Positions 1 to 19,315 of a stretch of 64,000 bases of DNA are shown here, piece after piece (position 1 is the stretch's first letter; each line of letters starts with the position of its first letter). The notes beneath the pieces were generated by a model. The model searched no databases, was not told the DNA's origin, and worked only from the letters and a program-made list of their open reading frames with translations. A program made the translations under genes and the position numbers. This DNA is from an uncultured Pseudomonadales bacterium. GTDB lineage: Bacteria; Patescibacteriota; Microgenomatia; UBA1400; PJMF01. Location: contig CAZEEV010000001.1 in the NCBI GenBank assembly GCA_964511345.1, forward strand, positions 220,342-284,341. The letters run 5' to 3'.

Positions 1-1135
1 AACTAAACAAACAAATTTGTCTAGCCACTCTTGCTCCTTCTCGAGCATAGAGGACCGGATCGACCAAAAGATTGTATCCTTTTGCCTTTAATTTGTCAAT
101 TAAGCTCTCAAGAGAATAAATTCTTTTATCTGTTTGCACTTTTGGAAAGACAATGGCCACAACAGCCCCATCATTGAGAATATTAGCAAAAGCTTTAAAA
201 GAACCTAAATACATCTTTTCAAGGCCTTTAAAAACATTAGCTAGTTCTTGATCTTTTGGAGTTTGTTTGCCTAAAAATGGCTCAGTGACTAAAAGATCAA
301 CTTTTTTAGCGAAATTTTCTGGATTGATATGACTGGCATCCATATAAAAAACTTTACTTTCTATATCAATGGAGTATTCTTTTTTAAACCATTCCAAATT
401 ATCTCGAGTGCCAAAGACTGCATTCTGATCGATATCTGAACCATAAATATCTAAATGTCTCATGCCTGCCTCAAGTAAAACAGTGCCAGTGCCACAAAAT
501 GGATCGTAGAGTAGTGGTTTGCCAGTGTTTTTTTCCTGCCACAAGCCTAAAGCAATATTAACCATCATCCGAGCTACTTTAGGAGGTAGCATGCCTTTTT
601 TACGATCTGCATAGGGCTTGGCACGATCACGGTTAGTCCAATCATCAATGTCTTGAACACCTCTGATTTGAGCCAGCAACAACTTACCTTCTTCAATTAA
701 ATTAAAACTCAATAATTCAGTAGCCTCTGATTTATGAGAAAGTAATGCACTCTCACTTGGATCACCAGAGAAATAGCGAGCTTTTTTACCATTTTCTTTG
801 ATTAAATCTTTGATATCAGCGTTACTAATTGATTTTTGACCTTTGCCAATTTGGGTAAAAGTAAAATATGGCGCATCTGTCTGAGACAGTAACAAAGCCA
901 CTATCTCTTCAACCAGTTTTTCATCTTCGATTTGATTATCAATCTCTTTAACAATTTCAAACAACTTAACTGAACCGCCTAAAATACTGATCATCGAATT
1001 AGCTACATCAGAATCACCTTCAAAAAGGAAAAGGTGTTTGTCTAATTGAGTGAGAGGATAATCTTGATAAACAGATTCAAACTCTAATTTGGATAAAAGA
1101 GTGGTGTTACCAAAAAGAATTAGGAATTTAGACAT
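1..1135 (-). CDS. THUMP-domain class I SAM-dependent RNA methyltransferase (COG0116, RlmL/Trm14-like). The C-terminus runs off the window start.
   Basis: My reverse translation from the ATG at 1135-1133 gives MSKFLILFG... and later ...KKGMLPPKVARMMVNIALGLWQ...LLYDPFCGTGTVLLEAG. The DPFCGTGT motif I (SAM binding) plus the upstream LPPxxARMMVNIA segment is typical of COG0116. No stop is reached before position 1, which is why it is absent from the ORF track. Confidence 0.6.
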   Translation of the reverse strand, partial: MSKFLILFGNTTLLSKLEFESVYQDYPLTQLDKHLFLFEGDSDVANSMISILGGSVKLFEIVKEIDNQIEDEKLVEEIVALLLSQTDAPYFTFTQIGKGQKSISNADIKDLIKENGKKARYFSGDPSESALLSHKSEATELLSFNLIEEGKLLLAQIRGVQDIDDWTNRDRAKPYADRKKGMLPPKVARMMVNIALGLWQEKNTGKPLLYDPFCGTGTVLLEAGMRHLDIYGSDIDQNAVFGTRDNLEWFKKEYSIDIESKVFYMDASHINPENFAKKVDLLVTEPFLGKQTPKDQELANVFKGLEKMYLGSFKAFANILNDGAVVAIVFPKVQTDKRIYSLESLIDKLKAKGYNLLVDPVLYAREGARVARQICLFS

Positions 1136-1158
1136 AACGGACAGTTGAGTACTAATTC

Positions 1159-1473
1159 TTAAGCAATCTTAAGAACTTTGACAGTACTCTGATACTGGCG
1201 GTGACCTTGCACCTTACGGTATCTGGATTTAGATTTATATTTGGCGACACGAATTTTCTCGCCTTTTTGGCTGGAAACCAATTCACAAGAAACTTTAGCA
1301 CCATCGACTAGAGGCTGACCGACTTTACGATCTGCTTCGCTGACCACTAATAAAACATCACTGACATCAAATTTGCTGCCAACTTCTTTATCTAATTGAT
1401 CAACCAAAAATTCATCGCCTTCCTGGACCATGAATTGTTTTCCTTGTAATTGAATGATTGCGTACTTTGACAT
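1159..1473 (-). CDS. rplU: 50S ribosomal protein L21 (bL21)
   Basis: 104 aa. MSKYAIIQLQGKQFMVQEGDEF... matches the bL21 N-terminal pattern (MYAII..GGKQ..V), and the size fits. Confidence 0.9.
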   Translation of the reverse strand: MSKYAIIQLQGKQFMVQEGDEFLVDQLDKEVGSKFDVSDVLLVVSEADRKVGQPLVDGAKVSCELVSSQKGEKIRVAKYKSKSRYRKVQGHRQYQSTVKVLKIA

Positions 1474-1497
1474 AACGAGGTTGAATTATATCAGATA

Positions 1498-2592
1498 CTA
1501 ATAAAAAATGAAGTTTGGCTTTTTCTTAAAATTTTTAGCAATAGATTGAGCAATACCAAGAGCAAAAAATAAAGAAATAACACTACTGCCTCCATAAGAA
1601 AGAAATGGCAAAGTGATGCCGGTAATTGGCAAAATTGCTAAGTTCATACCTACATTAATAAAAATTTGTATCAAAAACATCATAAATAAAACCAATAAAT
1701 AAAGCTTCTCGCCAAAATCGTCTATTTTGTAAGCCAAAGATAAAAGAAAAAATAATAATAAAAAATATAAAGTAAGTAAAAAACTAGCCCCAACAAAACC
1801 CCATTCTTCAGCAAAAGAGGCAAAAATAAAGTCAGTTTGCCTCTCTGGCAAAAAGCGTAAATGTGATTGTACCCCCTGACCAATACCACGACCCCAAAAT
1901 TGACCGCTACCAACAGCAATCAAGGCTTGGCGCGCGTTATAAGCGCTACTGCTTTCTTTAACATCAGCTTGCAAATCAATTGAAGTTTGATGTAAATGTA
2001 AAAACCCTAACAGTCTATTTTTTTGATAATCTTTGAAAACCAAAAACCAAAGCGCCATTAAGGCCAAAAAACCTATAGAAAATAGGGTTAAAATTTGTTT
2101 AAAGTCGAGTTTATTAAAAAATAGAAAAATTGCTAAAGCAGCAGAAAAAACCAAAACCGTGCCGAAATCGGGCTCCAATAAAATTAAGATTGCCGGCAAA
2201 GAAATAATAGCCAAAGTTTGAATTAATAGTGACCAATTGAATTTTTGCTTCTTTTTGAAAAAATTAATCAGATACAAAGCAGTAATCGGCACCGCCAATT
2301 GAGAAGGTTGAAATTTAAAACCAAAAGGTAAAACTATCCAAGCAGAAATTCCTCTAGTAATTGAGCCATAAACCAATAGAAACAACAAAGACAGATTGAG
2401 AAATAGGTAAAGCCATTTGGATATTCCCACATGAAAAGTAAACGGCAACTTACTAGAGAGAAAGAAAACTGCAAAAGCCAGTCCAAAAGCAATCGCTTGC
2501 TTATAAAGCAAATTTGGCACAATGCTGCGCAGAGTCGTTAAAGACAACACTGCAAAAAGAAACAGTATTCCAAACAAAAAATATTTGCGCAT
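1498..2592 (-). CDS. SEDS family peptidoglycan glycosyltransferase (RodA/FtsW-like). This is the second SEDS gene in the window, outside the division cluster.
   Basis: 364 aa polytopic membrane protein with SEDS motifs: QTDFIFASFAEEWGFVG and PFLSYGGSSVISLF. Confidence 0.75.
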   Translation of the reverse strand: MRKYFLFGILFLFAVLSLTTLRSIVPNLLYKQAIAFGLAFAVFFLSSKLPFTFHVGISKWLYLFLNLSLLFLLVYGSITRGISAWIVLPFGFKFQPSQLAVPITALYLINFFKKKQKFNWSLLIQTLAIISLPAILILLEPDFGTVLVFSAALAIFLFFNKLDFKQILTLFSIGFLALMALWFLVFKDYQKNRLLGFLHLHQTSIDLQADVKESSSAYNARQALIAVGSGQFWGRGIGQGVQSHLRFLPERQTDFIFASFAEEWGFVGASFLLTLYFLLLFFLLSLAYKIDDFGEKLYLLVLFMMFLIQIFINVGMNLAILPITGITLPFLSYGGSSVISLFFALGIAQSIAKNFKKKPNFIFY

Positions 2593-2605
2593 TTATTTTT
2601 TTACT

Positions 2606-5479
2606 TTAATCAAGCAATAATTTTGTCTCTATACCTTGCTTAATTTTAGTATTGGTTTTATCTTCAATCTCTTGTTTAAAAGCCTCTGGCCAGTTAGCTA
2701 ACTGCAAATCAACAACTTGATTTACATCTAATTTGGCTTCTTTGCGCAGATCTTGAATCTGGCGGATCAACTCTCTAGCTTCGCCTTCTGCTTTCAATTC
2801 TGCGGTTAAATTGAAATCATAATCAACTTCCAAATCACCAGCTTCTTTTAACCACTCCACATTTTTAACATTAATTTCTGCCTTCAACAACTCTTCTAAT
2901 TCTTTACGATAAACCATTTTACCAAAACCACTAACCTTCAAGCTCACCAAAGGCTGACGAGCTTTAATTTGCTTAAGTTTACGCAAGGCGTGAGCTACCT
3001 CCACAATTTTGCGCAAAGTTGACATTGAGTTTTCTAACTCTAAATCAACAAATTGCTCTCGATATTGGGGAAAATCAGTTAAATGAATCGAGCTTTTTTC
3101 ATCGATCATATTATGGTGAATTAATTCCGTAAAAAATGGCACAATTGGCGCAAAAGCTTTAGCGATTTCGTACAGAACAGTCGCAAAAACTTGACTCACT
3201 TCTTGATTATCTTTAGCTTTGATTCTTTCTCTGGAAGAACGCAAATACCAAGTCGATAATTCATCAATAAATGGAGCCAATAAACGACTAGCTTTCATCA
3301 CATCATATCGATCTAATTGTGTTGTGAGTTCTCGAATTACACTCTGCAAACGACTCAAAATCCAACGATCTAATAAGTTGCTCGGTTTTTGGCCAGCTTC
3401 TAAATCAAAGAAGCCAGACTCTTGGTTGCCAAAAGTTTTGTAAAAAGCCAAAACATTCCACCAAATCACGAAAACTCGACGACGCAAATTAACTACATCT
3501 TTTTCTGCAAAATTAAGTGTCTCAGCTTTAACTGCTGGAGAAGACATTAAATAAAGACGTAGAGCATCAGCTCCATATTTTTCCAAAACTTCTCCTGGTT
3601 CTGGATAGTTTTTCAAGCGCTTGCTCATCTTCTTGCCATCTTCAGCCATAATCAAGCCAGTACACATGACGTTTTTGAAAGCGCTACTTTTTTTCTCACT
3701 AGTTAAAGTCAAAGCCGTAGCTAAAACATGCAAAGTATAAAACCAACCACGAGTCTGATCTTGTCCTTCAGAAATAAAATCAGCTGGGAAGGAACGCTTG
3801 AAGGCCTCTTGATTAGCAAAAGGAAAATGCAACTCACCATAAGGCATAGAGCCTGATTCAAACCAGCAGTCCAGAACTTCTGGAATATGACGGTAAGTCT
3901 TACCATCTTTTTTAAACTCGATTTTATCGACGATGTGTTTATGCAAATCGCTAACTTTTTGACCAGAAAGTTGTTCCAACTCTTCAGCAGAACCAACACA
4001 AATAAAATCGCCAGCTTCACTTTCCCAAACTGGCAGAGGAGTACCCCAATAACGATTGCGTGAAATCGCCCAATCTCTGGCTCCTTCTAACCATTTACCA
4101 AAACGACCATGTTTAATATGATCTGGCTCCCAGTTAATCTTTTCATTATTAGCTAACAATTGATCCTTAAAAGAACTGACTTTAACGTACCAACTATCAG
4201 TTGCGTAGTTAAGGAGTGGGGTATCACAACGCCAACAGTGTGGATAGCTGTGCTCAATTTTCTTCTTAGCAAAAAGATTACCATGAGTTGCTAGATATTT
4301 AATGATTTCTATGTCTATTCCCTGAGGATTATCTTTTGGTTTGACTTCCATGCCTGCAAAATCAGTCACCTGGTTAATAAAACGACCATCCATACCTACG
4401 TGTTGTAGCAACTCGATACCTTCAGCTTTGCCAACGTTGTAATCGTCTTCACCAAAAGCAGGTGCGATGTGCACAATTCCAGTTCCATCATCTAAAGTCA
4501 CAAAGTCTCCAGCAACAACACGAAAAGCATTACTCCATTTAGCAAAATAGGGAAAAATTGGCTCATAAGTCAAACCAACTAACTGGCTACCTTTAAAACT
4601 CTGGCCAATTATTTCAAATTTTTTATCCGCCATGACTTCTAATAGGCGTTCTTTGGCTATTACAAATAAACCATTTTCTTCCTCAACTTTAACTAAAACA
4701 TAATCTAAATCTGCACCAACTGCTAACAACACATTACCTGGTAGTGTCCAAGGAGTAGTTGTCCAAGCTACAGCGTAAATTGATTCATTAGTATCGACGC
4801 CTAGTTTTGTGATGGCACCATGTAATTTAAATTTAGCAAAAACCGAAATATCTTTAACATCCTTATAGCCCTGAGTCACTTCGAAATTTGACAAAGGCGT
4901 GCCACAACGAGGACAGATGTGCATGGATTTGTGACTTTTGTAAATTAAGCCTTTATCCCACAGTTGACGGAAGACCCACCAAACTGTTTCCATAAAATCT
5001 TTGTCCATAGTTTTATAAGCGTGATCCATATCAATCCAACGCCCAATGCGACGAATAGTTTTTTTCCATTCTTCCGCATAAGTTAAAACTGTTTGACGAC
5101 AAGCTTCATTAAATTTATCAACTCCATAGCCTTCAATGTCTTTCTTACTATCTAGATTCAATTCTTTTTCGATAATGTTTTCGACAGGTAAACCATGACA
5201 ATCCCAACCCCAAACACGACGGACTCTTTTACCTTTCATCGTCTGGTAACGAGGAATAAGATCCTTGATGATTGATTGCATTAAATGACCATAGTGAGGT
5301 AAACCAGTCGCAAATGGAGGACCATCATAGAAAGAGAATGAGTTGTCGACGCTTCTTTGATCAATTGATTTTTGAAAAGTTTGATCATCATCCCAAAACT
5401 GAAGAGTTTCACTTTCTAACTCTGGAAGGTTTGGTACTTGTTTAAAATCTGTAATTTTCATTTTTTCCTTATGAACCAT
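2606..5479 (-). CDS. ileS: Isoleucyl-tRNA synthetase, type 2 (eukaryote/archaeal-like)
   Basis: 957 aa. The HIGH region FYDGPPFATGLPHYGHL is characteristic of IleRS type 2, and a KMSKR (KMSKS) motif is present. It is preceded by a T-box leader. Confidence 0.9.
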   Translation of the reverse strand: MVHKEKMKITDFKQVPNLPELESETLQFWDDDQTFQKSIDQRSVDNSFSFYDGPPFATGLPHYGHLMQSIIKDLIPRYQTMKGKRVRRVWGWDCHGLPVENIIEKELNLDSKKDIEGYGVDKFNEACRQTVLTYAEEWKKTIRRIGRWIDMDHAYKTMDKDFMETVWWVFRQLWDKGLIYKSHKSMHICPRCGTPLSNFEVTQGYKDVKDISVFAKFKLHGAITKLGVDTNESIYAVAWTTTPWTLPGNVLLAVGADLDYVLVKVEEENGLFVIAKERLLEVMADKKFEIIGQSFKGSQLVGLTYEPIFPYFAKWSNAFRVVAGDFVTLDDGTGIVHIAPAFGEDDYNVGKAEGIELLQHVGMDGRFINQVTDFAGMEVKPKDNPQGIDIEIIKYLATHGNLFAKKKIEHSYPHCWRCDTPLLNYATDSWYVKVSSFKDQLLANNEKINWEPDHIKHGRFGKWLEGARDWAISRNRYWGTPLPVWESEAGDFICVGSAEELEQLSGQKVSDLHKHIVDKIEFKKDGKTYRHIPEVLDCWFESGSMPYGELHFPFANQEAFKRSFPADFISEGQDQTRGWFYTLHVLATALTLTSEKKSSAFKNVMCTGLIMAEDGKKMSKRLKNYPEPGEVLEKYGADALRLYLMSSPAVKAETLNFAEKDVVNLRRRVFVIWWNVLAFYKTFGNQESGFFDLEAGQKPSNLLDRWILSRLQSVIRELTTQLDRYDVMKASRLLAPFIDELSTWYLRSSRERIKAKDNQEVSQVFATVLYEIAKAFAPIVPFFTELIHHNMIDEKSSIHLTDFPQYREQFVDLELENSMSTLRKIVEVAHALRKLKQIKARQPLVSLKVSGFGKMVYRKELEELLKAEINVKNVEWLKEAGDLEVDYDFNLTAELKAEGEARELIRQIQDLRKEAKLDVNQVVDLQLANWPEAFKQEIEDKTNTKIKQGIETKLLLD

Positions 5480-5698
5480 GGTATTCTTACTACTAAAAAA
5501 GCCTGCTCAAAAACGAAATTTTTATCGTTTTTAAGCAGGCTCATCTTTTTACTAGACGAAGGTACCAGCCTTGCTAATACTTGATTTGGAGTGATTACGG
5601 GCTCAACCGATCTGGTTTACTCACTTTTTCATTTCAAAAAAGTTTTCTGCAGACACCTCACCGTGGATAGCGGCTAAAAAGGTTTTAAATACTAAGGA
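5480..5698 (-). promoter_or_regulatory. T-box riboswitch leader (Ile-specific) controlling ileS
   Basis: The minus-strand RNA contains ...UAUUAGCAAGGCUGGUACCUUCGUC.... Helix A1 AGGCU/AGCCU, the 7-nt bulge UGGUACC (UGGU would pair with the tRNA-Ile ACCA end) and helix A2 CGUC/GAUG form a canonical antiterminator that competes with the downstream terminator. An upstream stem contains AUC followed by a purine (rc of plus 5609-5611) as a candidate specifier. Leader length about 220 nt. Confidence 0.6.
5500..5541 (-). terminator. Intrinsic terminator hairpin of the ileS T-box leader. It probably also ends the ftsZ transcript.
   Basis: On the minus strand AGCCUGCUUAAAAACGA-loop-UCGUUUUUGAGCAGGCU is followed by UUUUUU, sitting 20 nt upstream of the ileS AUG. 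The 5' arm overlaps the antiterminator 3' strand. Confidence 0.7.
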
Positions 5699-5699
5699 A

Positions 5700-5728
5700 A
5701 TTATATTTTGAACCCTGTCTTTTTGCAA
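5700..5728 (-). promoter_or_regulatory. Sigma-70-like promoter for the ileS leader
   Basis: On the minus strand: TTGCAA (plus 5723-5728), a 17-nt spacer, then TATAAT (plus 5700-5705). Confidence 0.5.
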
Positions 5729-5782
5729 AAGCAAAAAGCAGATGGTGCAAAAGATGCTGTGCATAACACGAAAGAAAAAAGA

Positions 5783-7084
5783 TTATCTATCTCGCAAAAA
5801 AGCTGGAACATCAAATTCTGCAAACTCATCTTCTGTTTCAACATCTTCTTTTTTATCACTTTGATCATCGCGCTTTTTTTCATCTTTTTTACGTAAATTG
5901 AAGAGAGCTGACCTGACAAAAGGATTATGACTTTCCTCTTCAACCTCTTCCTTCTTAGGCTTTGCGGTTACTATTTGTGGCTGAGTAAAACCACTGGGAG
6001 TGCGATCAATTTTGTCTTCCTCAACTTCCTCATCTGACTTTTTATAAGTCGCGGTGGGGCCACTCATTTTACGGCGAGATTCTCGACTATAAGCTCCGAA
6101 CATCGCTCGTGGACCAGAACCAGAATAGCTATCGCCAAAACCTGTAGCAATGACACTAATTTTAATTTTGGAACCCATATTTTCGTCGATTGTGGCACCG
6201 AAAATAATATTGGCATCTGGATCAGCACTATCAGCAATCACCGCCGAAGCATCTGAGATTTCACTCATCGCCATATCTGGACCACCAGTAATGTTGTAAA
6301 GAATACCCTTGGCCCCATCGATGGAAATTTCTAAGAGTGGGGAAGAAACAGCCATGCGAGCAGCCACTACAGCGCGATCTTCACCAGAAGCTTCACCAAT
6401 ACCCATTAGGGCAGAACCAGAATCAACCATAATTGTTTTTACGTCAGCAAAATCAACATTGATCATACCGGCAATAGTAATTAAGTCGGAAATACCTTTC
6501 ACACCTTGTCCAAGTACATTATCAGCTAAACGGAAGGCATCGATAAAAGTCATTTTCTTATCAATCACTTCTAATAAGCGTTGATTAGGAATAACAATTA
6601 AAGTATCAACAGTGTCAGTTAAAGCCTCAATACCCTCATCAGCGGTTTGCATACGACGAATACCTTCAAAAGCAAAAGGTTTGGTGACGACAGCCACAGT
6701 CAGCGCACCCGCTTCTTTGGCGATTTCGGCGATAATTGGAGCAGCACCTGTACCAGTGCCACCACCCATACCAGCGGTGATAAAAACCATATCAGTATCA
6801 AAGAGCAAATCTTTGAGTTTCTCACGACTTTCTTCAGCAGCGGTGCGACCAACTTCTGGGTCGGCACCAGCGCCCAAACCTCTGGTAAAATTGCTACCAA
6901 TTTGCATTTTGGTTTCTGCTTTGGAGGTTAAAAGAGCCTGAGCATCAGTATTAACTGTAATAAATTCCACCCCATTAATTTGCTTGGAAAGAATCATGGA
7001 ATTGACAGCATTGCTACCGCCACCGCCCACACCGATCACTTTAATTTTGGCAAAAGTAGTATTTGAAGGTTTAACGAGTCCCAT
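5783..7084 (-). CDS. ftsZ: Cell division GTPase FtsZ
   Basis: The [13 protein letters not shown] tubulin signature and an acidic disordered C-terminal tail. Confidence 0.95.
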
Positions 7085-7177
7085 GGTTTTTAGTCTTTCT
7101 TAAGATATCAAACTACAACATAAATTAGCTGATTTTTCCTAAAAAGTAAACTGGCAATAATCAAATTGAAGTTTATT

Positions 7178-8488
7178 TTAAGGCAAAATCGATTTAGTTG
7201 ATTTTTTTAATTTATCAAAAACATTTTTAAATAAATCTTTCGGTAAAAGAGCCTGCCAATTAAAATCTTCACTTACTGCCGTCACATTACCTTGCTTCAG
7301 AGCATAATCCAACAAACCAACTGAAACCGCAAAATTAGGTTTTTTAATATCCTCAGTCAAACCTTCAATTTCCTCTGGATACGCCACTCTCACCGGCAAA
7401 TTACTAACTTTTTTGGCCACCTCTGTCAAAGCAGCAGTCATGGCACCACCTCCAGTTAAAACCAAACCGGCTGGAATTTTATTGTCTGTCAGTAAATCCG
7501 CTTTTTCTAACTCTTGCATCACTAAACGAAAGATTTCTCTGACGCGAGGTTCCATAATTCCACTAGTGAGAGTTTTTTTAGATAGAAAATCGTTATGACT
7601 AATTCCAACTTTTTCTGGATCAATTAAATCCAATTTACGCTTTCTCTTGGTAAAATCTGCTTTCGATTCACCAGGATAAGGTTTTAAATCGTCAACGCCA
7701 TTATCAGTTAAATAAAGCTTAAGTTTTTCTGCATCGTCCATGGGAATACGACAGCCCAAGGCAATATCTTGAGTAATATGTTTAGCACCAATCGGCAAAA
7801 CCGCTGAAAAAGCTAAAGTTCCTTCAACATAAGCTACCATACTGGTCGTGCCAGCTCCAATGTCGACTAGAACCGCTCCTAATTCTTTTTCAGTCTCAGT
7901 TAGAGCAATTTGTGAAGCAGCTAGAGCAGAGAAAACAAAAGCATCAACTTTAATGCCCATATCGTTAATACATTTCTCTAAATTACGCATTGCCGTAGTT
8001 AAACCAGTAATAATATGTGCTTCAGCCTCCAGTCTGACTCCGGTCATCCCAACGGGATCTTTAACTCCATCCTGAGAATCAACTTTAAAATCTTTAGGAA
8101 TGACGTGGATAATTTCACGATCAGCTGGCATGGATACTGCTCTGGCAGCTTCGATCACTCGATCAACATCACTGTGAGTAATTTCTTGATCGCTAGCGGC
8201 CACTGCCACCACCCCTCTGGAATTCTTATATTTAATATGTACTCCAGAAATAGACACCACTGCATTTTTCACACTAAAACCAGCCATTCTTTCTGCTGCA
8301 TCCAAACCTTGACTCATAGTGTTAAGCACTTGTTCTAAATCAATAATCATGCTGCGCTTCATGCCTCTGGCAGGCACCACTGAGAAGCCTAGCACCTGTA
8401 ATTTATTACTTTCTGTTACCCGAGAAATTAGGGTTGTGCATTTATCACTTCCCAAATCTATGGCTGTTATCACTTGTTCTTTACTCAT
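7178..8488 (-). CDS. ftsA: Cell division protein FtsA (actin-like ATPase)
   Basis: 436 aa. N-terminal AIDLGSDK, actin-fold motifs (DIGAGTT, LTGGGA), and a position immediately upstream of ftsZ. Confidence 0.9.
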   Translation of the reverse strand: MSKEQVITAIDLGSDKCTTLISRVTESNKLQVLGFSVVPARGMKRSMIIDLEQVLNTMSQGLDAAERMAGFSVKNAVVSISGVHIKYKNSRGVVAVAASDQEITHSDVDRVIEAARAVSMPADREIIHVIPKDFKVDSQDGVKDPVGMTGVRLEAEAHIITGLTTAMRNLEKCINDMGIKVDAFVFSALAASQIALTETEKELGAVLVDIGAGTTSMVAYVEGTLAFSAVLPIGAKHITQDIALGCRIPMDDAEKLKLYLTDNGVDDLKPYPGESKADFTKRKRKLDLIDPEKVGISHNDFLSKKTLTSGIMEPRVREIFRLVMQELEKADLLTDNKIPAGLVLTGGGAMTAALTEVAKKVSNLPVRVAYPEEIEGLTEDIKKPNFAVSVGLLDYALKQGNVTAVSEDFNWQALLPKDLFKNVFDKLKKSTKSILP

Positions 8489-8540
8489 ATATTTTTACTT
8501 CACTCTCATCATAAACTATACAAAATTTTGGAGATAATGT

Positions 8541-9233
8541 CTATTCTTTTAACACTGGCAGATTAAAACGCATATCAAGAATTTTTTTAGTGGGCAAAAT
8601 AGTTTTTAATTCTTCTTTTTTCAAAATCAAAGCTAAGCGTTCTACTTGATAAGCAAAGTCTTTAGTGTTGTCCATAATAACCTCTATTTGATCAAGATAG
8701 AGATATATTTCTGAATCATTTTGCCAAACAATTTTTTTACTTATAATTTGTTGTTTATTTAAAGCCTGACTTAAAGCCAAAAATTGTTGATGATAGCCAT
8801 CTTCAAGATAGCCGTGTTGTTTGATACTCGGATCACCCATAAACTCTATGCTGGGTAAAGTTAAGCGTTCTTGATTATCTTTTAATTTGTTGCTCTGATT
8901 GAGTAAATATTGCTCTGAACCGATAACCAAACGATAATCTGGTAATTTGGCAATCAATGATAAATTAGCTGTTCCTGTCATGGATTTTTTAATTTTTTGA
9001 TATTGATAAACTTGACTAAATTGTTGATTACCAAGTAATTCTTCCCATACAGATTCATTTTCTAGATCAGTAAAAAATAAGGATTTCCCTTTTAATCGAT
9101 CATTTATTAATTCGCACACTCCAGTTTCTATGGTATTGCTCTCTAACAAACAATTAATTTTTCTGAAAACAAAAACGAAACGAAATAATAAAAAAAGAAT
9201 TAATAAAAAAATAACAAATCTCAGAATTTTCAC
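8541..9233 (-). CDS. FtsQ/DivIB-like cell division protein (single N-terminal TM; called by synteny)
   Basis: 230 aa with one N-terminal TM helix and an extracytoplasmic domain. It lies between murG and ftsA, where ftsQ normally sits. There is no strong motif evidence. Confidence 0.45.
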   Translation of the reverse strand: MKILRFVIFLLILFLLFRFVFVFRKINCLLESNTIETGVCELINDRLKGKSLFFTDLENESVWEELLGNQQFSQVYQYQKIKKSMTGTANLSLIAKLPDYRLVIGSEQYLLNQSNKLKDNQERLTLPSIEFMGDPSIKQHGYLEDGYHQQFLALSQALNKQQIISKKIVWQNDSEIYLYLDQIEVIMDNTKDFAYQVERLALILKKEELKTILPTKKILDMRFNLPVLKE

Positions 9234-9235
9234 AA

Positions 9236-10372
9236 TTAAGCTGTTTCTTTATGCTTGTTTTGGTAAGTAGTTACTAAAAGTTGATAAAGCTTAGAACTTG
9301 CATTTTGATAAAGACTGTTTTTAGCTAGGCTTAAACGCATCTCTTTGTAATTTTTTTCTAAAAATTCAACACTATCAAGAAAAGTAACATTATTTAATTT
9401 TGTCTGTTGTAAAATTAGAGCACCGTTTACCTTCTGCATCGCCAACGCATTAGCTAATTGTTCATTTTGATAAGCATTTGCTAAGGGAATCAGAATAGCT
9501 GGCAAGGGAGCAAGAGATAATTCTAAAACTGCATTAGCGCCAGATCTAGAAATGGCAAATTTAGCATGTTGATAAATCCAAAACAAATCTTCTGCTTCAA
9601 TCCATTCTTTGACAAAATACCTCTCTCGTAAAGCCTTGGGCAGATGAGATTTAATTTCATCTAACTCCTTAAAAGAATCCTTAATTTTGTTGGCGCGACC
9701 ACATTGATGAATAATGCAATATTTTGTTAAAAGTTTTTCTAAATTATTTTTAATTAAATCATTAATCACAAAAGAACCTTGATTGCCACCCATGATTAAC
9801 AATAAGTCTTTCGCTGAAGTTGGCAGCCACTTAGGTCTTTTCAAATCTTTGGCAAATAATCTGGCCCTAATCGGATTACCAGTTAAAACCACATCTGATC
9901 TTTTTAAATACTGCTTAGTTTCTTCATAAGAAATCGCCACTTTATCTGCAATACCAGCAATAAATTTATTGGCTTTACCTAAAACCACTGTTTGCTCGTG
10001 AGTTATTACAGCAATACCCAAACTCTTAGCGGCAATAGCAAAGGGCACTGCTAAATAAGAACCAAAGGATAAGAATAAATCGATTTTTTCAGCTAATAAA
10101 ATTTTACGAGCTCTAGCAACAGTGCGCGGAAACATTAAAAAAGCACTAACTCGACTCAACAAAGAATAATTAACAAATTTAGCCGCTGTGAAAGGAATGA
10201 ATTTAACACCTCTTTTTTCCACCTCTTCTTTTTCAATTGCTTTCTGGCCAAGTTTCTCTTGACTATATAAACGACCAACAAAAAATAGCTGATGTTCTGA
10301 ATGATTGGCTTGAATGAAATCAATCATCGCTAAGGCCGGAGTTAAATGAGCACCACTAAATAAAATTCTCAT
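9236..10372 (-). CDS. murG: MurG, lipid I to lipid II GlcNAc transferase (undecaprenyl-PP-MurNAc-pentapeptide-UDPGlcNAc GlcNAc transferase)
   Basis: 378 aa. MGGNQGSFVIN (GGSQGA-like) and the C-terminal SRSGANAVLELSLAPLPAILIPL...NEQLANA match the MurG GT28 C-terminal domain. Confidence 0.85.
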   Translation of the reverse strand: MRILFSGAHLTPALAMIDFIQANHSEHQLFFVGRLYSQEKLGQKAIEKEEVEKRGVKFIPFTAAKFVNYSLLSRVSAFLMFPRTVARARKILLAEKIDLFLSFGSYLAVPFAIAAKSLGIAVITHEQTVVLGKANKFIAGIADKVAISYEETKQYLKRSDVVLTGNPIRARLFAKDLKRPKWLPTSAKDLLLIMGGNQGSFVINDLIKNNLEKLLTKYCIIHQCGRANKIKDSFKELDEIKSHLPKALRERYFVKEWIEAEDLFWIYQHAKFAISRSGANAVLELSLAPLPAILIPLANAYQNEQLANALAMQKVNGALILQQTKLNNVTFLDSVEFLEKNYKEMRLSLAKNSLYQNASSKLYQLLVTTYQNKHKETA

Positions 10373-10393
10373 ATTTCTATTTCTTAAGCATTA

Positions 10394-11467
10394 CTATTTT
10401 TTAAGTTTAGCATGTCTTGCTATGGAGAGTAAGACTCCGCTTGCGAAAAATAGCATTAAAAGCGAAGATCCTCCTTGAGAAAAGAAGGGTAGCGGCATAC
10501 CACTTAAAGGCAGTAGCACTACTACAGCTGACAAGTTAAATAGCAATTGAATAGCTATCCAGGCTAAAATTCCATAATAAAGTAAATGTTCGTATTTACT
10601 TAAATCTTTATTTCTAACCATAGCATTAGCCAAAATAAAATAACAAGCAAACAGAGTAATGATGATAAAAGAACCAACAAAACCTATTTCTTCTGCCACG
10701 ATAGCAAAAATAGAATCACTACTGGCCTCTGGCACATAAGAATATTTTTGTTGAGAATTACCAATACCTCTACCTAACCATGAACCCCCACCTAAAGCCA
10801 AAGTAATTTGCCTGACATGATAAGAATCTTCCAAAACATTTTCCTCTGGATTTAAAAAAGTCGTCAATCTTTCTCTTCTGTAAGGACTAAATAAAACCAC
10901 TAATAGTGCTAATAAAAATCCGCCAGCAAATACCATTGATAAAAGTTTGATATTCGCACCTGATAAGAAATAGACAATTAAACTGCTAGCTACCAAAATC
11001 ATTAAAGATCCAAAATCTGGTTGCAATAAAATTAAAATAGTTGGCCATAATAAAAAAAACAGAAAACTTTTTAAATCCAATTTTTTGGATAATAAATAAG
11101 CATAAAAATTGATCAATACAAATTTAAAAATCTCCACTGGTTGCAAAGTACCAAAAGGTAAACTGATCCAACGACGAGCTCCATTTAATTTTAAACCTAT
11201 TCCTGGAATTAAAGTTAAAATTAACAATAAAATATTTAAAACATAAAAATGTAGCGCAAATTTTTCGAAATATTTAACTTTTATTCTGCTTGAAAAGAAA
11301 AACACCACAAAAGAAATCGCCAACCACAAAGCTTGTTGCTTAAAAAAATGATATTGATGTCCAAATAACTTAAAGCTTTCCACCGTAGACGCTTCAAAAA
11401 CAAAGAATAATCCGATCAAAGAAAGGGCAATGACTAAAAAATAAAAAAATTTAGAAGATGATGACAT
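10394..11467 (-). CDS. ftsW: SEDS protein FtsW (division cluster copy)
   Basis: 357 aa. SDSIFAIVAEEIGFVGS and PFFSQGGSS motifs, and a position between mraY and murG. Confidence 0.8.
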   Translation of the reverse strand: MSSSSKFFYFLVIALSLIGLFFVFEASTVESFKLFGHQYHFFKQQALWLAISFVVFFFSSRIKVKYFEKFALHFYVLNILLLILTLIPGIGLKLNGARRWISLPFGTLQPVEIFKFVLINFYAYLLSKKLDLKSFLFFLLWPTILILLQPDFGSLMILVASSLIVYFLSGANIKLLSMVFAGGFLLALLVVLFSPYRRERLTTFLNPEENVLEDSYHVRQITLALGGGSWLGRGIGNSQQKYSYVPEASSDSIFAIVAEEIGFVGSFIIITLFACYFILANAMVRNKDLSKYEHLLYYGILAWIAIQLLFNLSAVVVLLPLSGMPLPFFSQGGSSLLMLFFASGVLLSIARHAKLKK

Positions 11468-11485
11468 GGGTTCTTAATCAGCTAT

Positions 11486-12529
11486 TTAAATCACCGCCAA
11501 CCACACTCCAAAAATCGTCAGCATAATTTGCAACAACCAAGCTCGTTGTACAATTTTTGGCTCCTCCCAGCCTCTTTCTTGAAAAGTTAAATGAAGTGGG
11601 GCAGCTGGCATAATTTTTTTCTTAAAATATTTTTTAGCTATTAATTGAATTAAAGAACTGGCAATTTCTGCCACAAAAATAAAACTGATGATCACTAAAG
11701 CTACTACTTTACCCAATAACAAACCAACCACTGCTAAAGTTGCACCAAAAGCTAATGAACCAACATCACCCATAAAAATTCTGGCCGGAAAAACATTGAA
11801 GTAAAGAAAAGAAACTAAAGCTCCTAACCACAATGCTAGAAACACTGACAGAGGCACATCTAAAATTGTTGATGACAAAATCCATAGACCAAAAGAAGAA
11901 AACAATAATAAGCCAGAAGCAAGACCGTCTAAACCATCTGTGATATTAACAGCATTGGCAAAAGCCACAATTACAAAGGCAGCAAAGGGAATATAAAAAT
12001 AACCTAATTGCAGAGTGCCAATAAAAGGAATGTGTAAAATAGAAATTTCTAACTGGAAATAAATCATGCAGGAAATAATAACTGCCAAAACTACTTGTAG
12101 AATCAATTTTTGACGCATGCGCAAACCAAAAAACTTACTGTCATTGAAACGGAAAAATTTTTTAATATCGTCATAAAGACCCAAAATCGCAAAAGATAAA
12201 AAAGTAAAAAACAAAATGTTAACTTCAGCTTGACTATTGCGATGAATACTCGTCACCTCAATGCCAAAGTAATTAAGGGCTGGAATCATCAAAGCAAAAA
12301 GTAAAGAAACCATTATCACCACTAATAAACCTCCGCCAACTGGTACGCCAGCTTTGCTAGAGTGAAACTTATCAAAAATAGGCGTACGTTTGCCAAAGGC
12401 ATCTAAGGTTTTTTGATCCTGACGACGAAAACGTAATTTATAAAGTAAATTAATGAATGGCACTACTGCGCTACTAGTTAAAGTAAAAGAAAAAATTAAA
12501 ATCCCTAAAAAAAGTGCTAGCGATCCCAT
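11486..12529 (-). CDS. mraY: Phospho-N-acetylmuramoyl-pentapeptide transferase MraY
   Basis: 347 aa. NAVNITDGLDGLA and MGDVGSLAFGATLAV motifs. Confidence 0.9.
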   Translation of the reverse strand: MGSLALFLGILIFSFTLTSSAVVPFINLLYKLRFRRQDQKTLDAFGKRTPIFDKFHSSKAGVPVGGGLLVVIMVSLLFALMIPALNYFGIEVTSIHRNSQAEVNILFFTFLSFAILGLYDDIKKFFRFNDSKFFGLRMRQKLILQVVLAVIISCMIYFQLEISILHIPFIGTLQLGYFYIPFAAFVIVAFANAVNITDGLDGLASGLLLFSSFGLWILSSTILDVPLSVFLALWLGALVSFLYFNVFPARIFMGDVGSLAFGATLAVVGLLLGKVVALVIISFIFVAEIASSLIQLIAKKYFKKKIMPAAPLHLTFQERGWEEPKIVQRAWLLQIMLTIFGVWLAVI

Positions 12530-13851
12530 GTTGTCCTTTCAATCTTGGCTCCCATCAAAATTAATTTTTCATCTATTTTTTGATAACCGCGTTCAACTTG
12601 CTCAATATTATGCAAAATAGTTTTGCCCTTAGCCCCAATAGCTGCCAACAAAATAGTAGCGCCAGCTCGCAAATCATGAATAGTAAATTCACCTCCTCTG
12701 AAATCTGTCGGGCCAGAAATTTTAATGGCATGGCGATCACTTTCAAGATGATCCTGCCAATTAAAATTGTAGAGTTCCTCTGGATTTTTTACTGTTGGAT
12801 TAAAATATTCAATTTTAGCTCCCATTGCCTTTAAATCTTCCACATATTGAAAGCGATTTTGCATCACAGTTTCGTGAATAATACTTTCACCATGACATTG
12901 GCAGAGCAGAGTAGCAAAAAGAGGTTGCCAATCAGTCATAAATCCAGGATGAATTTCTGTTTCTACGTCGGTAGCTTGCAATGGTCCCTTATAAAAGAAA
13001 CGAATACCGTAGTCACCAATTTCATAACCCGCCCCAATTTCATCCAACTTATTCAAAAAAGCTTTTAAATCATTATGTCTAGCATTCTCCACCACAATAT
13101 CGCCCCTGCTAGCAATAGCCGCACAAGCATAACTAACTGCTTCGTTGCGATCTGGCATAATCTTATGAATTGCTCCATTCAATTTTTCAACGCCATCAAT
13201 TTCAATTTTTCTAAAAGAGCGACGGCGAATTTTAGCTCCCATTTGATTAAGGAAGAGAATTAAATCATCGATTTCTGGCTCCTCAGCAGCATTTTCCAAA
13301 ATTGTTTTACCTTTGGCTAATACAGCAGCCATAATTAAAGTTTCGGTTCCAGTATGAGTATTTTTTTCAAAACGATAAGTACAACCTTTAAGTTGTTTAC
13401 AAGTGGCTTTTAAAATTCCATCTTCTTGAGTAAACTGAGCTCCCATTAATTCTAGGCCCATCATATGTCTCTCTAAAGGACGTTTACCAATTTTATCTCC
13501 ACCTGGCAGTGGAACTTCAGCATGACCAAATTTAGCCAGAAGAGCTGGAATAAAAAGAGTGGAAGCACGAGATTGCTCGCCATGATTTTGCTGAATGCCA
13601 GAGAAACGAAAATTTTTAGGATTAATAATAAAAGTACGCTCACCAACGCGATGTGCCCCTGCTCCAAGCTCGTTGATAATCTGTGCCACTAAATCAACAT
13701 CAGAAATATCTGGCAAATTTAATAAACGACTTTCAGCGCTACCAAGCAAAGCCGCAATCATTAACTTATAAGAAGCATTTTTAGCTCCACCAACTCTTAC
13801 CGAACCATAAAGAGGAGTTCCCCCCGTAACTATGAAGCTTGCTTTAGACAT
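12517..13851 (-). CDS. murA: UDP-N-acetylglucosamine 1-carboxyvinyltransferase MurA
   Basis: 444 aa. FIVTGGTPLYGSVRVGGAKNASYKLMIAALL N-terminus. It overlaps the mraY start by 13 nt. Confidence 0.9.
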   Translation of the reverse strand: MSKASFIVTGGTPLYGSVRVGGAKNASYKLMIAALLGSAESRLLNLPDISDVDLVAQIINELGAGAHRVGERTFIINPKNFRFSGIQQNHGEQSRASTLFIPALLAKFGHAEVPLPGGDKIGKRPLERHMMGLELMGAQFTQEDGILKATCKQLKGCTYRFEKNTHTGTETLIMAAVLAKGKTILENAAEEPEIDDLILFLNQMGAKIRRRSFRKIEIDGVEKLNGAIHKIMPDRNEAVSYACAAIASRGDIVVENARHNDLKAFLNKLDEIGAGYEIGDYGIRFFYKGPLQATDVETEIHPGFMTDWQPLFATLLCQCHGESIIHETVMQNRFQYVEDLKAMGAKIEYFNPTVKNPEELYNFNWQDHLESDRHAIKISGPTDFRGGEFTIHDLRAGATILLAAIGAKGKTILHNIEQVERGYQKIDEKLILMGAKIERTTWDR

Positions 13852-13873
13852 ATTTTTCTTTCCTTCTAAAACC

Positions 13874-14848
13874 CTAGGTTAAATAAAAAACTTCCTCTTT
13901 TAGAATAACATTAAATTTCTCTAAAACCACTGCCTTAACCTTGGCTACTAATTTCTTGACGTCACTGGCCTTGCCATTTCCTAAATTTACAAAAAAAGCA
14001 GAATGTTTTTCACTTACTTGAATACCTCCTTCTCTCGTACCTTTAAGACCAGCTTGTTCAATTAAAAAACCAGATGGAATGAATTCCGCTTCGCTGAATT
14101 TCGGAAAAAGTTTTTTTAACTCATCGGTATTACGAGGATTTTGAAAAACACAACCGCAACTTGGCATATTTAGAGGTTGGCGAGACTCACGTCTTTCCAT
14201 TGAATCTTTAATTGTTGTTTTAATTTTCTCTGGATCATCTTTTTTTAATGCAAAAACTGCAGAAAAAATTAATAGATCTTTATTTTTTTGAAAAATGGAT
14301 TGCTCATAAGCAAAATCACAATTTTCATGTGAAAATGTAACAATTTCTCCTTTTTTCACGTCAAAAGCTTCAACTTCCTTAATATGATTGCCAATTAAGT
14401 TGTCCAAATAATGAGCATTGTTATAAATCGCTCCACCTAATGTTCCTGGCACACCAATAAAACCTTCTAGACCACTGCCACCTCTATTAGCCGTTTGCGC
14501 CACCAAATAAGCAGTTTTCATACCAGCGTCAGCTCGAACAATCAATTCCTGATCATTGTCATTAATAATCTCAAGCTCCTTAAAATCTAGGCTTAAAACT
14601 AAACCTCTTAAACCCTCATCAGCAATAATTACATTACTGGCTCCACCTAAAATATAAAATTTAATATTTTGTTTGTGACAAAAAGATAACAAATCTGCTG
14701 CCTCTTGGCGACTCTTGGCACTATAAAAAACCTCTGCATTACCACCAATTTTGAAATAACTTTTCGAGGCAAGCGGATAATTAAAAAGGAAGTCTAGGGA
14801 AGGAAAATTTTGCTTAAAAAGCTGTTCTAAATTCATAGTCTTTTTCAT
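13874..14848 (-). CDS. murB: UDP-N-acetylenolpyruvoylglucosamine reductase MurB
   Basis: 324 aa. FAD-binding FKIGGNAEVF..ILGGASN and C-terminal SAFFVNLGNGKASDV motifs typical of MurB. Confidence 0.85.
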   Translation of the reverse strand: MKKTMNLEQLFKQNFPSLDFLFNYPLASKSYFKIGGNAEVFYSAKSRQEAADLLSFCHKQNIKFYILGGASNVIIADEGLRGLVLSLDFKELEIINDNDQELIVRADAGMKTAYLVAQTANRGGSGLEGFIGVPGTLGGAIYNNAHYLDNLIGNHIKEVEAFDVKKGEIVTFSHENCDFAYEQSIFQKNKDLLIFSAVFALKKDDPEKIKTTIKDSMERRESRQPLNMPSCGCVFQNPRNTDELKKLFPKFSEAEFIPSGFLIEQAGLKGTREGGIQVSEKHSAFFVNLGNGKASDVKKLVAKVKAVVLEKFNVILKEEVFYLT

Positions 14849-14896
14849 TCTATCACGAGATGTGATTATACAAATAAGGTTTATAATGAGAGCGCA

Positions 14897-15574
14897 ATGG
14901 AAATTATAAAACCAGGTTTATATTTGGTTGATAAACCAAGCGGTCCGAGTAGTCACGCCATTGTTAATTATTTCAGAAAAAAAAGCGGCATTAAAAGAGT
15001 GGGACATTGTGGCACCCTAGATCCGCTTGCCTCCGGCTTACTTATTATTCTCGTCGGTCGAGAATATACCAAACAACAAAATCTTTATTTAAAAAAAGAT
15101 AAAGAATATCTAGTACAAGCCCAACTAGGAATTGAAACTGATACTTACGATAAAACTGGCAAAATAATCAAGCAAGTAGAGTGGCAAGAACTAAAACAAA
15201 TTAATAAAAAAGATTTATTAAATATTCTGCCTGAGTTTAAAGGTAAAATTAAACAAACAGTCCCAATTTTTTCCGCCGTGAAAATTAAAGGACAAAAACT
15301 TTACCAAAAAGCCAGAAGGGGAGAAAAGGTTATCTTGCCAAGTCGAGAAATCAATATCACTAAATTAACTCTCAAAGACTTTAAGAAAGACGTGAAAAAC
15401 CAAATTATCAGCTTCGAGCTTTTGGTTGCTTGTTCAAGTGGTACCTACATCAGATCTCTCATTCACGATTTGGGGGAAAAACTAAAAGTTGGAGCACACG
15501 TCACAATACTACGTCGCACCAAAATTGATAAATTTCACGTGAAAAAAAGTATTTCTATTAATTGGGATAGTTAG
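14897..15574 (+). CDS. truB: tRNA pseudouridine(55) synthase TruB
   Basis: 225 aa. GHCGTLDPLASGLLIILVG catalytic-Asp motif. Confidence 0.85.
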   Translation: MEIIKPGLYLVDKPSGPSSHAIVNYFRKKSGIKRVGHCGTLDPLASGLLIILVGREYTKQQNLYLKKDKEYLVQAQLGIETDTYDKTGKIIKQVEWQELKQINKKDLLNILPEFKGKIKQTVPIFSAVKIKGQKLYQKARRGEKVILPSREINITKLTLKDFKKDVKNQIISFELLVACSSGTYIRSLIHDLGEKLKVGAHVTILRRTKIDKFHVKKSISINWDS

Positions 15575-16148
15575 CTTTAGTCACAGCGCTAATGGCTGCC
15601 GGTGGCCAATATCTGAAAAAGACTCTGCCAATGATATCGTCTTTAGTAATCGCTCCCCAAGCTCTGGAATCACTTGAATATGGACGGTTGTCTCCTGAGA
15701 CGAAAAATTCATTGGGTCCTAAATAAACACTTTTATCTTTAGTGGCGTTGCCAGGTAAAATGGGGAAATCACTAGGAATATATGGTTCTGGTAATTGATT
15801 GCCATTGACCCAAATCGCATTATTTTTTACTTCAACAGTGTCACCTGGTACTCCCAAAATACGCTTAATGAAATCGCAACCAGTGCCTTCTGGACAATGA
15901 GCAGCTGGAGGAGCGTGAAAAACCACGATCTCTCCACGTTGCGGATCCCTCATTTTATAAGACACTTTATCGGTTAAAACATGTTCTCCGTCCTGAAAAT
16001 TAGGCACCATAGATTGACCATTAACCTGATGTGGTTGCAAGAAAAATAAATAAACCACCAAAAAAATCGAAAAAGAAATAGCCATGGTTTCAATTAAGTC
16101 TAGAAAAGTGGCACCAATTTTTTGAAAAACGTTTTGCATAACAGCCAA
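15558..16148 (-). CDS. lepB: Signal peptidase I
   Basis: 196 aa. GQSMVP (Ser box), RILGVPGD, and GDNRPYSSDSRAWG (box E). Confidence 0.85.
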   Translation of the reverse strand: MAVMQNVFQKIGATFLDLIETMAISFSIFLVVYLFFLQPHQVNGQSMVPNFQDGEHVLTDKVSYKMRDPQRGEIVVFHAPPAAHCPEGTGCDFIKRILGVPGDTVEVKNNAIWVNGNQLPEPYIPSDFPILPGNATKDKSVYLGPNEFFVSGDNRPYSSDSRAWGAITKDDIIGRVFFRYWPPAAISAVTKANYPN

Positions 16149-16173
16149 TATGTTACTACTTTTCTAAGCCTGC

Positions 16174-17433: not shown

Positions 17434-17434
17434 T

Positions 17435-18550: not shown

Positions 18551-19311
18551 AATCTAAATTCAACTTCGATTTTCTTTTGTGTTTTATTAGTAGCCTTATC
18601 AATGGCTTCAAACTCTAGCTCATTTTTACCTTCATTTAAATAGTAGTTGGTGGAAAAATTACCTTCGCTGTCAGCTAAAACCATTCTGCCATTTACCAAA
18701 ACTTTAGCGTTCGCCTCTGTTTTGCCTTTGATGGTGGTGGTGCGATTTTTTTTCAATTCAATCACGGCGCCATCTTTTGGCTCTTCAATTTCCAAAATTG
18801 GTAACTCAGAATCCTTGGCAATTAGGTAAGAGCGAGTTTTAAGTGACTCATTGCCAGCTTCATCTACTCCAAAAATTGACAGTTCGTTTTCTCCATCAGA
18901 TAGGGCTAATTCATGCTCAAATTGTCCTTCCTCGGAAACTATGATTTCTGCACTTTTGGCAGAATTAAGCAAAAAAATCACTCTGCTTTTGGGTTCAGCA
19001 AAACCTTTCAAATTTAAACTCGCAGAAAAAGTCGCTTCGACTGGATTGCTAGCTAAAACTGGCACTTGAGGAGGAACAGTGTCCTTTTCCACCATAGGAG
19101 AATCTTTATCGATAATGGCAAAAAATAACCTAATTAAACTAGGCATGATCAAAAAAACAAATAGCAGCAAAATAACAATACCAAAAAATAGAAAATAAAA
19201 AGTTTGTTTTTGAATTTTACTTTTTTCTCTTTTAACTAAACGAGAAGAAGCGAAGTTTTTTTTATCGGCTTTTTTTTGATAAATTGAAGAATAGCGACGA
19301 GAATTAAACAT
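18547..19311 (-). CDS. Hypothetical membrane-anchored protein with predicted beta-rich (Ig-like) extracytoplasmic repeats
   Basis: 254 aa. Basic N-terminus, one TM (FYFLFFGIVILLLFVFLI), then strand-rich repeats. No recognisable motif. Confidence 0.3.
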   Translation of the reverse strand: MFNSRRYSSIYQKKADKKNFASSRLVKREKSKIQKQTFYFLFFGIVILLLFVFLIMPSLIRLFFAIIDKDSPMVEKDTVPPQVPVLASNPVEATFSASLNLKGFAEPKSRVIFLLNSAKSAEIIVSEEGQFEHELALSDGENELSIFGVDEAGNESLKTRSYLIAKDSELPILEIEEPKDGAVIELKKNRTTTIKGKTEANAKVLVNGRMVLADSEGNFSTNYYLNEGKNELEFEAIDKATNKTQKKIEVEFRF

Positions 19312-19315
19312 GTTT

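Follow-up and report, generated by a model that had tools for sequence, protein, structure and literature searches.

The region upstream of ileS

The window, that is, the whole 64-kb stretch to whose positions all coordinates refer, contains between ftsZ and ileS a region (5480-5728) that we consider, from the comparison of homologous sequences described below, highly probable to be a T-box riboswitch which senses tRNA-Ile and controls ileS by transcription attenuation. The leader, its promoter, ileS, the gene ftsZ (5783-7084) upstream of ileS and the gene ftsA (7178-8488) upstream of ftsZ all lie on the minus strand. The regulated gene ileS (2606-5461, or 2606-5479 according to the open reading frame (ORF) finder) encodes an isoleucyl-tRNA synthetase (IleRS) that matches TIGR00392 with E = 3e-275. 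The best matches of this protein among solved structures were eukaryotic cytoplasmic, T. thermophilus 1ile and 8c8u/8c8v, at about 720-780 bits, as against 324 bits for S. aureus 1ffy, and the protein contains FYDGPPFATGL. Both results agree with an earlier reading made from the DNA letters only (hereafter the sequence-only reading), which had called the enzyme type 2 (eukaryote-like), and on this evidence we class the window IleRS as type 2. The ORF finder puts the start of ileS at ATG 5479 (MVHKEK...). Because the relatives begin with MKI(K/T) after an AAGGA Shine-Dalgarno (SD) sequence, the true start is probably the second ATG at 5461; here the AAGGA (5470-5466) and the ATG (5461-5459), together spanning 5459-5470 on the minus strand, lie outside the terminator and are not sequestered.

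A consensus scan recovered the promoter that the sequence-only reading had claimed, TTGCAA-17-TATAAT at 5728..5700, with the -35 hexamer TTGCAA at 5723-5728, the -10 hexamer TATAAT at 5700-5705 and a spacer of 17 nucleotides (nt) between them. Transcription of ileS is inferred to start near 5693, and the leader measures about 214 nt to ATG 5479, close to the length of about 220 nt proposed earlier. Sigma-70-like promoters in positions 1-20000 of the window number 63 against 60.7 expected; since promoter-like hexamers thus occur at chance level in this AT-rich DNA, the match at ileS is not significant on its own. A TATAAT-like -10 box was found 12-24 nt upstream of Stem I in all 11 close relatives, with an extended TG in 8 of them.

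Stem I, Stem II and the pseudoknot of the leader

An IleRS search of genomes and metagenomes gave 159 loci, designated below by L-numbers, and 16 distinct homologous leaders, mostly from Dependentiae/TM6, were found upstream of ileS. The Stem I of the window leader (5655-5683, minus strand) is only 29 nt long and consists of a lower helix ACC/GGU, an internal loop UUUUUA/GA, an upper helix GCCG/CGGU and a 7-nt apical loop CUAUCCA (5664-5670), which the minimum-energy fold leaves unpaired. The two helices, of 3 and 4 bp, both covary and are 89-96% paired. The internal loop is asymmetric and is described as a degenerate K-turn-like GA motif; the GA on its 3' strand is conserved, and its 5' strand ends with GA in L004, L002, L017, L012, L114 and L095 and with UA in the window.

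The apical loop presents the triplet AUC (5666-5668, minus strand), an Ile codon complementary to the anticodon GAU. This is the only triplet of the loop that is invariant, being present in 16 of 16 leaders, and the downstream gene is ileS every time. The registers UCC, CUA and UAU were rejected because AUC alone is invariant across the leader family. The sequence-only reading had expected a stem I that can be folded with AUC in a specifier loop. AUC is indeed unpaired in a loop, but this is the apical loop of a short stem and there is no internal specifier loop; nor does the window leader have a long Stem I with its AG bulge and distal platform.

Stem II (5610-5654, minus strand) comprises a lower helix GUCUG/CAGAU, an S-turn whose two strands are CAGAAA (5649-5644) and GUAAAC (5620-5615), and an apical hairpin that varies (5643-5621). 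Over the 16 sequences pairing in the lower helix reaches 100%, and compensatory changes occur at all 5 pairs; in relatives the helix reads GCUUG/CAAGC, GCCUG/CAGGC, ACCUG/CAGGU, ACUUG/CAAGU, GCCGA/UCGGC, GGGGA/UCUCC and GGUAA/UUACC. The S-turn strands read AGAAA and GUAAA in the window, and the 3' strand is GUAGA or UUAGA in relatives. Next follows a Stem IIA/B pseudoknot of 21 nt (5589-5609, minus strand), CGG-UU-GAGC-CCG-UAAUC-ACUC, in which IIA is formed by CGG/CCG and IIB by GAGC/ACUC, and which includes the F-box CCGUAA (5600-5595). In relatives IIB appears as UGGC/GCCA, UAGC/GCUA, GAGU/ACUC and GAGU/GCUC; its pairs, which are not encoded in our covariance model, are 88-89% paired, with double changes in 3 of the 4. 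A Stem II S-turn and a IIA/B pseudoknot with F-box occur in most T-boxes except the glycine ones. The pseudoknot is followed by the 17-nt linker CAAAUCAAGUAUUAGCA (5572-5588, minus strand) with a conserved AAGUA, and helix A1 of the antiterminator takes its outer part from the last 4 nt of this linker, AGCA (5575-5572).

Class III T-boxes have a short Stem I without elbow platform, carry the specifier in the apical loop and need Stem II (PMC10482949); the name "ultrashort" refers to the same group, all members of which regulate ileS and which is described as translational (bioRxiv 10.1101/2023.02.28.530422). In the ileS T-box of Nocardia farcinica the specifier C is C18, the S-turn consists of G37-A38-A39 and G67...A69-G70-A71, and the F-box 87-CCGUCA-92 is part of a 21-nt pseudoknot (PMC7583486). 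Compared by this published residue numbering, and not by sequence alignment, the S-turn G lies at +19 from the specifier C in 12 of 15 leaders (N. farcinica C18 to G37), and in 14 of 15 the F-box has its first C at +20 from the base that opens the 3' S-turn strand (G67 to C87). The short Stem I, the apical AUC, the presence of a Stem II domain and these spacings all match, and by its sequence the decoding module is therefore Class III/ultrashort.

Mutually exclusive antiterminator and terminator

On its minus strand the sequence contains the T-box core AAGGCUGGUACC, whose UGGUACC bulge occupies 5567-5561. The antiterminator (5534-5575, minus strand) is composed of helix A1, AGCA-A-GGC/GCC-UGCU, the bulge UGGUACC with U5560, and helix A2, UCGUCU/AGAUGA, closed by a loop at 5553-5547. 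A1 is thus AGGC/GCCU, lengthened by AGCA/UGCU across a bulged A to 7 bp. The form AGGCU/AGCCU given by the sequence-only reading counted one U twice, and the A2 of that reading, CGUC/GAUG, does exist as a helix but is longer, UCGUC(U)/(A)GAUGA. A1 and A2 both covary in the alignments of 15 and 16 leaders, and UGGUACC is invariant in 15 of 16 leaders, L095 having a 6-nt bulge UGGUUC. The variable base of the bulge is U, which suits the discriminator A73 of bacterial tRNA-Ile.

The intrinsic terminator (5493-5542, minus strand) consists of a hairpin at 5542-5499 of 16-18 bp (18 pairs in the scan that located it) and about -25 kcal/mol, after which comes U6 at 5498-5493. The 5' arm of the hairpin starts with the 3' strand of A1, GCCUGCUU, and reuses it, a sharing that the sequence-only reading had proposed; the two folds are mutually exclusive. 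The U6 tract likewise sits 15 nt ahead of ATG 5479, as stated there. When the window RNA is cut before the 3' arm of the terminator it folds as the predicted antiterminator (-11.6 kcal/mol) with UGGUACCU bulged out, and the full-length RNA folds as the terminator, GCCUGCUU being common to the terminator and A1. By itself the antiterminator amounts to about -10 kcal/mol. The terminator of the ileS leader is the strongest terminator-like site in 20 kb and the sole strong one.

In the core clade, which we define by at least 66% IleRS identity, the terminators have 16-18 bp, mostly -24 to -25 kcal/mol (-20 to -27 overall) and U6-U8, and they start exactly at the 3' strand of A1. The distant L015 and L114 share this design. 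In L012 (2890-2945; the same in L092 and L094) and L095 (1320-1375), the partners of the terminator's 3' arm are the bulge and the 5' strand of A1, with the A2 hairpin enclosed, and the modelled switch topology of L012 and L095 is different from that of the core clade.

Conservation and covariation of homologous leaders

Among the core-clade loci with upstream DNA the leader was present in 12 of 12, and it was also found at some distant type-2 ileS genes, namely those of L012 (identical to L092 and L094), L015 and L114. The nearest T-box-negative ileS neighbours (L093, L097 and others) showed no leader remnant or degenerate T-box motifs. A "regulatory retention", as which the sequence-only reading had taken the leader, is not established by this distribution, universal in the core Dependentiae clade and patchy among distant type-2 ileS. 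In L003, L004 and L008 the leader stands upstream of ileS with other genes in the place of ftsZ; therefore it travels with ileS and not with ftsZ.

A covariance model, R1, was built from 15 leaders. It scored the window leader with 152.6 bits and picked up L095, which was not in the seed, with 59 bits (E = 4e-11). R1 gave no other credible match in the 64-kb window that might be a second T-box. A full-length match at 15998-16139 on the plus strand, with UGGCACC, scored 13.5 bits (E = 0.23); it lies antisense inside an ORF (15558-16148, minus strand) and was rejected as a chance match.

Covariation was scored over 28 base pairs in 9 helices, the pseudoknot included. In a plain MAFFT alignment of 15 leaders, 92.9% of the positions were paired compared with 25-44% when the partners were slid by 1-3 columns, and 19 pairs were double-changed (0 of 500 shuffles). 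The model-guided alignment of 16 leaders including L095 gave 94.8% paired against 22-44% slid, with 21 double-changed pairs (0 of 500 shuffles), and a curated alignment made element by element gave 96.5% paired (0 of 2000 shuffles). On account of this conservation and covariation in 16 homologous leaders, the sequences place the features of the leader far beyond chance. The 16-leader comparison bears out the central call of the sequence-only reading, that is, a T-box with an AUC specifier, UGGUACC and competing antiterminator and terminator before a type-2 ileS.

Host and neighbouring genes

The closest IleRS relatives, with 82-92% identity, include that of "candidate division TM6 bacterium GW2011_GWF2_28_16" (complete, 853 kb) and those on metagenome contigs of 750-840 kb, and the window is for this reason assigned, by sequence, to a Dependentiae (TM6) bacterium with a small genome. 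The loci L001, L006, L007, L008, L010 and L015 are titled "uncultured Pseudomonadales", "Parcubacteria" or "Pacebacteria" (several of them). Their IleRS proteins are 66-92% identical to that of the TM6 genome, and they share the ftsZ-ileS synteny and the leader; the taxonomy given in these titles seems unreliable.

Seven tRNA genes lie at 20458-61418, for Thr-CGU, Gly-CCC, Asp-GUC, Lys-UUU, Gly-UCC, Leu-UAG and Glu-UUC, and no rRNA was found in the window. ARAGORN called a tRNA-Gly(ccc) with a span of 80 nt inside the ileS coding region at L012 4495-4574 and L092 3495-3574, which is probably a false positive.

A palindrome of 11 bp at 5715-5741 (minus strand), CUGCUUUUUGC-UUUU-GCAAAAAG-A-CAG, overlaps the -35 hexamer of ileS and can form a hairpin of -16.3 kcal/mol (z = -4.5) with no U-tract after it. 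L080 and L003 keep it, the latter with no ftsZ upstream; the other relatives lack it, and their -35 hexamer overlaps the stop codon of ftsZ. The palindrome could serve as a DNA operator or form a hairpin at the 3' end of the ftsZ transcript.

Proposed mechanism

The following sequence of events is proposed. The RNA would start near 5693 from its own promoter, and the short Stem I would present AUC in its apical loop. The purines of the Stem II S-turn would dock against the codon-anticodon helix, and the IIA/B pseudoknot would keep both stems correctly angled, giving an anticodon-binding groove as in Class III ileS T-boxes. If the tRNA-Ile is uncharged, UGGU, the first four bases of the bulge, could pair with its free ACCA 3' end; the antiterminator, which is weak (about -11 kcal/mol), would thereby be stabilised and RNA polymerase would read into ileS. 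With tRNA that is charged, or with none, the terminator, which is much stronger (about -25 kcal/mol, plus U6), would seize the 3' strand of A1, and transcription would end 13-31 nt before the start codon. The binding of tRNA, the discrimination between its charged and uncharged forms and termination in vivo are what we infer from the arrangement of these elements.

Several observations weigh against a tRNA-sensing attenuator of this kind. The base 3' of the specifier is C (5665) in the window and not the conserved purine, at variance with the "AUC plus purine" context given by the sequence-only reading. Across the family, 10 of 16 leaders have A at this place, and C stands there in the window, L080, L003, L005, L081 and L095; at least in N. 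farcinica this base takes part in contacts (PMC7583486). Stem III is counted as part of the discriminator core, and the linker at 5588-5572 folds to no hairpin in the window. Folding of the linker likewise gives no Stem III in L080, L003, L004, L007 and L012, and one of 5-10 bp in 9 relatives; L095 lacks it too. The extension of A1 to 7 bp may compensate for its absence. The unpaired stretch of the antiterminator is one of 8 nt, UGGUACCU, which is UGGUACC plus one U; the 7-nt bulge described earlier is thus right as to UGGUACC at 5567-5561 and wrong as to the length of the unpaired stretch. No tRNA-Ile gene was found in the window or in 17 related loci. In positions 1-20000, intrinsic-terminator-like sites number 13 against 13.7 expected; as they are not enriched, it is not established that this organism makes general use of intrinsic termination. 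The elbow-binding distal Stem I, according to reviews generally required for transcriptional T-boxes and for fast tRNA capture (PMC7583486, section 6.2), is absent here. With a short Stem I, no distal platform, no Stem III and a C after the specifier, the leader is not the "complete" T-box with "every canonical part" that the sequence-only reading had described.

The search with the Rfam T-box model also counts on this side. RF00230 (gathering score 93 bits) gave no match in the window at the gathering threshold, nor at E<=10 on a 501-nt slice, and none in the relatives L005, L007, L012 and L015. Some weak Rfam matches to microRNA and snoRNA families merely reflect the terminator hairpin. The covariance model score, which the sequence-only reading had named as a check, is therefore below threshold and the check formally fails. 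The same search, applied as a positive control to loci with the classical 14-mer AGGGUGGUACCGCG, found canonical T-boxes in L200, L172 and L197 at 108-127 bits; since these three were detected, the miss reflects the RNA itself and not the search: with this structural class the model has given a false negative. R1 in turn did not match the canonical T-boxes of L200, L172 and L197. Earlier control loci (the Firmicute-labelled L077 and 16 others) yielded no T-box with RF00230, and the first 17 viral-contig matches to AGGGTGGTACCGCG were set aside as chance.

Alternative explanations

The downstream hairpin might sequester the ribosome-binding site instead of terminating transcription, as would be expected if the leader resembled the other members of its class, for the Class III/ultrashort decoding module is described as translational (bioRxiv 10.1101/2023.02.28.530422; PMC1262725) and intrinsic terminators are not enriched in the region. 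We regard such a translational T-box as very unlikely, because U6-U8 follows the hairpin, a textbook intrinsic terminator of 16-18 bp, in every core-clade member, and because the SD sequence and start codon are left free: in the relatives they lie 28-47 nt downstream of the terminator at a variable distance, outside the hairpin and in no competing helix. No conserved anti-SD pairing was seen. An equivalent of the terminator and U-tract was found in all members of the leader family, and with the SD sequence and AUG free, all of them look, on sequence, like transcription attenuators and none like an SD-sequestering switch. A doubt of another kind concerns the sub-lineage of the window, in which the leader might be a decaying T-box relic, acting as a constitutive partial terminator or a mere 5' untranslated region (UTR) with no tRNA sensing. 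The window, L080 and L003 have no Stem III, and a C stands after AUC in these three and in L005 and L081, at the very base that contributes contacts in N. farcinica. Yet compensatory changes of the helices persist within this sub-lineage: between the window and L080 a Stem I pair changes from G-U to A-U, a Stem II pair from G-U to G-C and a IIB position from C/A to U-A, and the IIB of L003 is GAGU/GCUC. Decay is for this reason quite unlikely. Moreover, AUC, the S-turn, the F-box and UGGUACC are intact, A1 is lengthened to 7 bp, and Stem III is missing in the distant L007, L012 and L095 too, which suggests that it is dispensable in the class rather than decayed.

It might also be supposed that there is no riboswitch at all, the hairpin and U-tract being the terminator of an ftsA-ftsZ operon and the GGTACC palindrome and AUC having arisen by chance. 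Indeed ftsZ ends at 5783 with no other U-tract terminator before ileS, and the negative RF00230 result would fit. This supposition is extremely improbable in view of the 28 base pairs in 9 helices, including a pseudoknot, that covary, of the motifs and spacings, which match solved T-boxes, and of the leaders kept upstream of ileS where there is no ftsZ (L003, L004, L008). In addition, the promoter lies upstream of the hairpin, and consequently the hairpin sits within the 5' UTR of ileS. On sequence grounds, where the promoter lies, how the leader is conserved at loci lacking ftsZ and the covariation together exclude a plain ftsZ terminator. That the terminator of the leader may close the ftsZ transcript as well, as the sequence-only reading held, is plausible.

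Implications of a short attenuator

Within the preferred reading, a tRNA-Ile-sensing attenuator, we tentatively put forward a further possibility, to which we give slightly less than an even chance: the leader may be a natural minimal co-transcriptional T-box, in which a Class III groove with no elbow platform, and in the lineage of the window with no Stem III, would drive a terminator. If this is true, the elbow contact and Stem III would be unnecessary for the kinetically demanding transcriptional mode, against the current generalisation, and short-Stem-I T-boxes would be widespread in uncultured phyla (Dependentiae and other lineages of metagenome-assembled genomes) while being invisible to surveys with RF00230. 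The family would offer a testable natural counter-example to the association, made in reviews, of a short Stem I with translational control, some of its members being without Stem III as well. The short-Stem-I model of TBDB was applied only to Actinobacteria and to RF00230 (class I) hits with a truncated Stem I. Because RF00230 misses the family and the TBDB model is so restricted, T-box regulation in the Dependentiae, which are intracellular and have reduced genomes, goes unrecorded; R1 or its seed alignment could mend the annotation. That a host-dependent bacterium of about 0.85 Mb keeps a sensor of tRNA-Ile charging before its only IleRS gene suggests that the supply of isoleucine by the host is a regulated bottleneck.

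Comparison with known T-box classes

From Stem II onward the leader resembles the Class I T-boxes (B. subtilis tyrS type, RF00230) in the order of its elements, namely the S-turn, CGG..CCGU(U/A)A, the AAGU linker and GG(G/C)UGGUACC, and this order fits the RF00230 consensus, GAA ... AGUA - CGG..CCGUUA - AAGUG - Stem III - GGGUGGUACCGCG. The logic of transcription attenuation is likewise that of Class I, with A1 and A2 flanking the bulge and a terminator overlapping A1. What sets it apart from Class I is the lack of a long Stem I, together with the internal specifier loop, the AG bulge and the distal loop platform; the window copy is also without Stem III.

With the Class III T-boxes of Nocardia farcinica, Mycobacterium tuberculosis and M. 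smegmatis, a class whose structure with tRNA-Ile has been solved, it shares the short Stem I without elbow platform and the AUC in the apical loop. The Stem II S-turn (GAA / GUAGA), the 21-nt IIA/B pseudoknot with F-box, the UGGNACC bulge, the spacings of +19 and +20 and the exclusive association with ileS are also those of the actinobacterial Class III. The apical loop has 6-7 nt here compared with the 5-6 nt reported for Class III, and the F-box is CCGUAA, whereas it is CCGUCA in N. farcinica. The hosts differ too, being Dependentiae/TM6 for this family and Actinobacteria for Class III. Further differences are the absence of Stem III in the window and 6 of the 15 other members, and the pyrimidine after the specifier in the sub-lineage of the window. 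The actinobacterial ileS T-boxes use an SD-sequestering switch (PMC1262725), and where they have an SD-sequestering helix, the leader described here has an intrinsic terminator with a U-tract. In the literature searched we found no joint mention of T-boxes and Dependentiae/TM6, and an earlier report of a short Stem I with a terminator is possible. Judged by its sequence, the leader couples a decoding module of Class III to an intrinsic terminator in Dependentiae, with no Stem III in the window copy, and this is probably a new combination.

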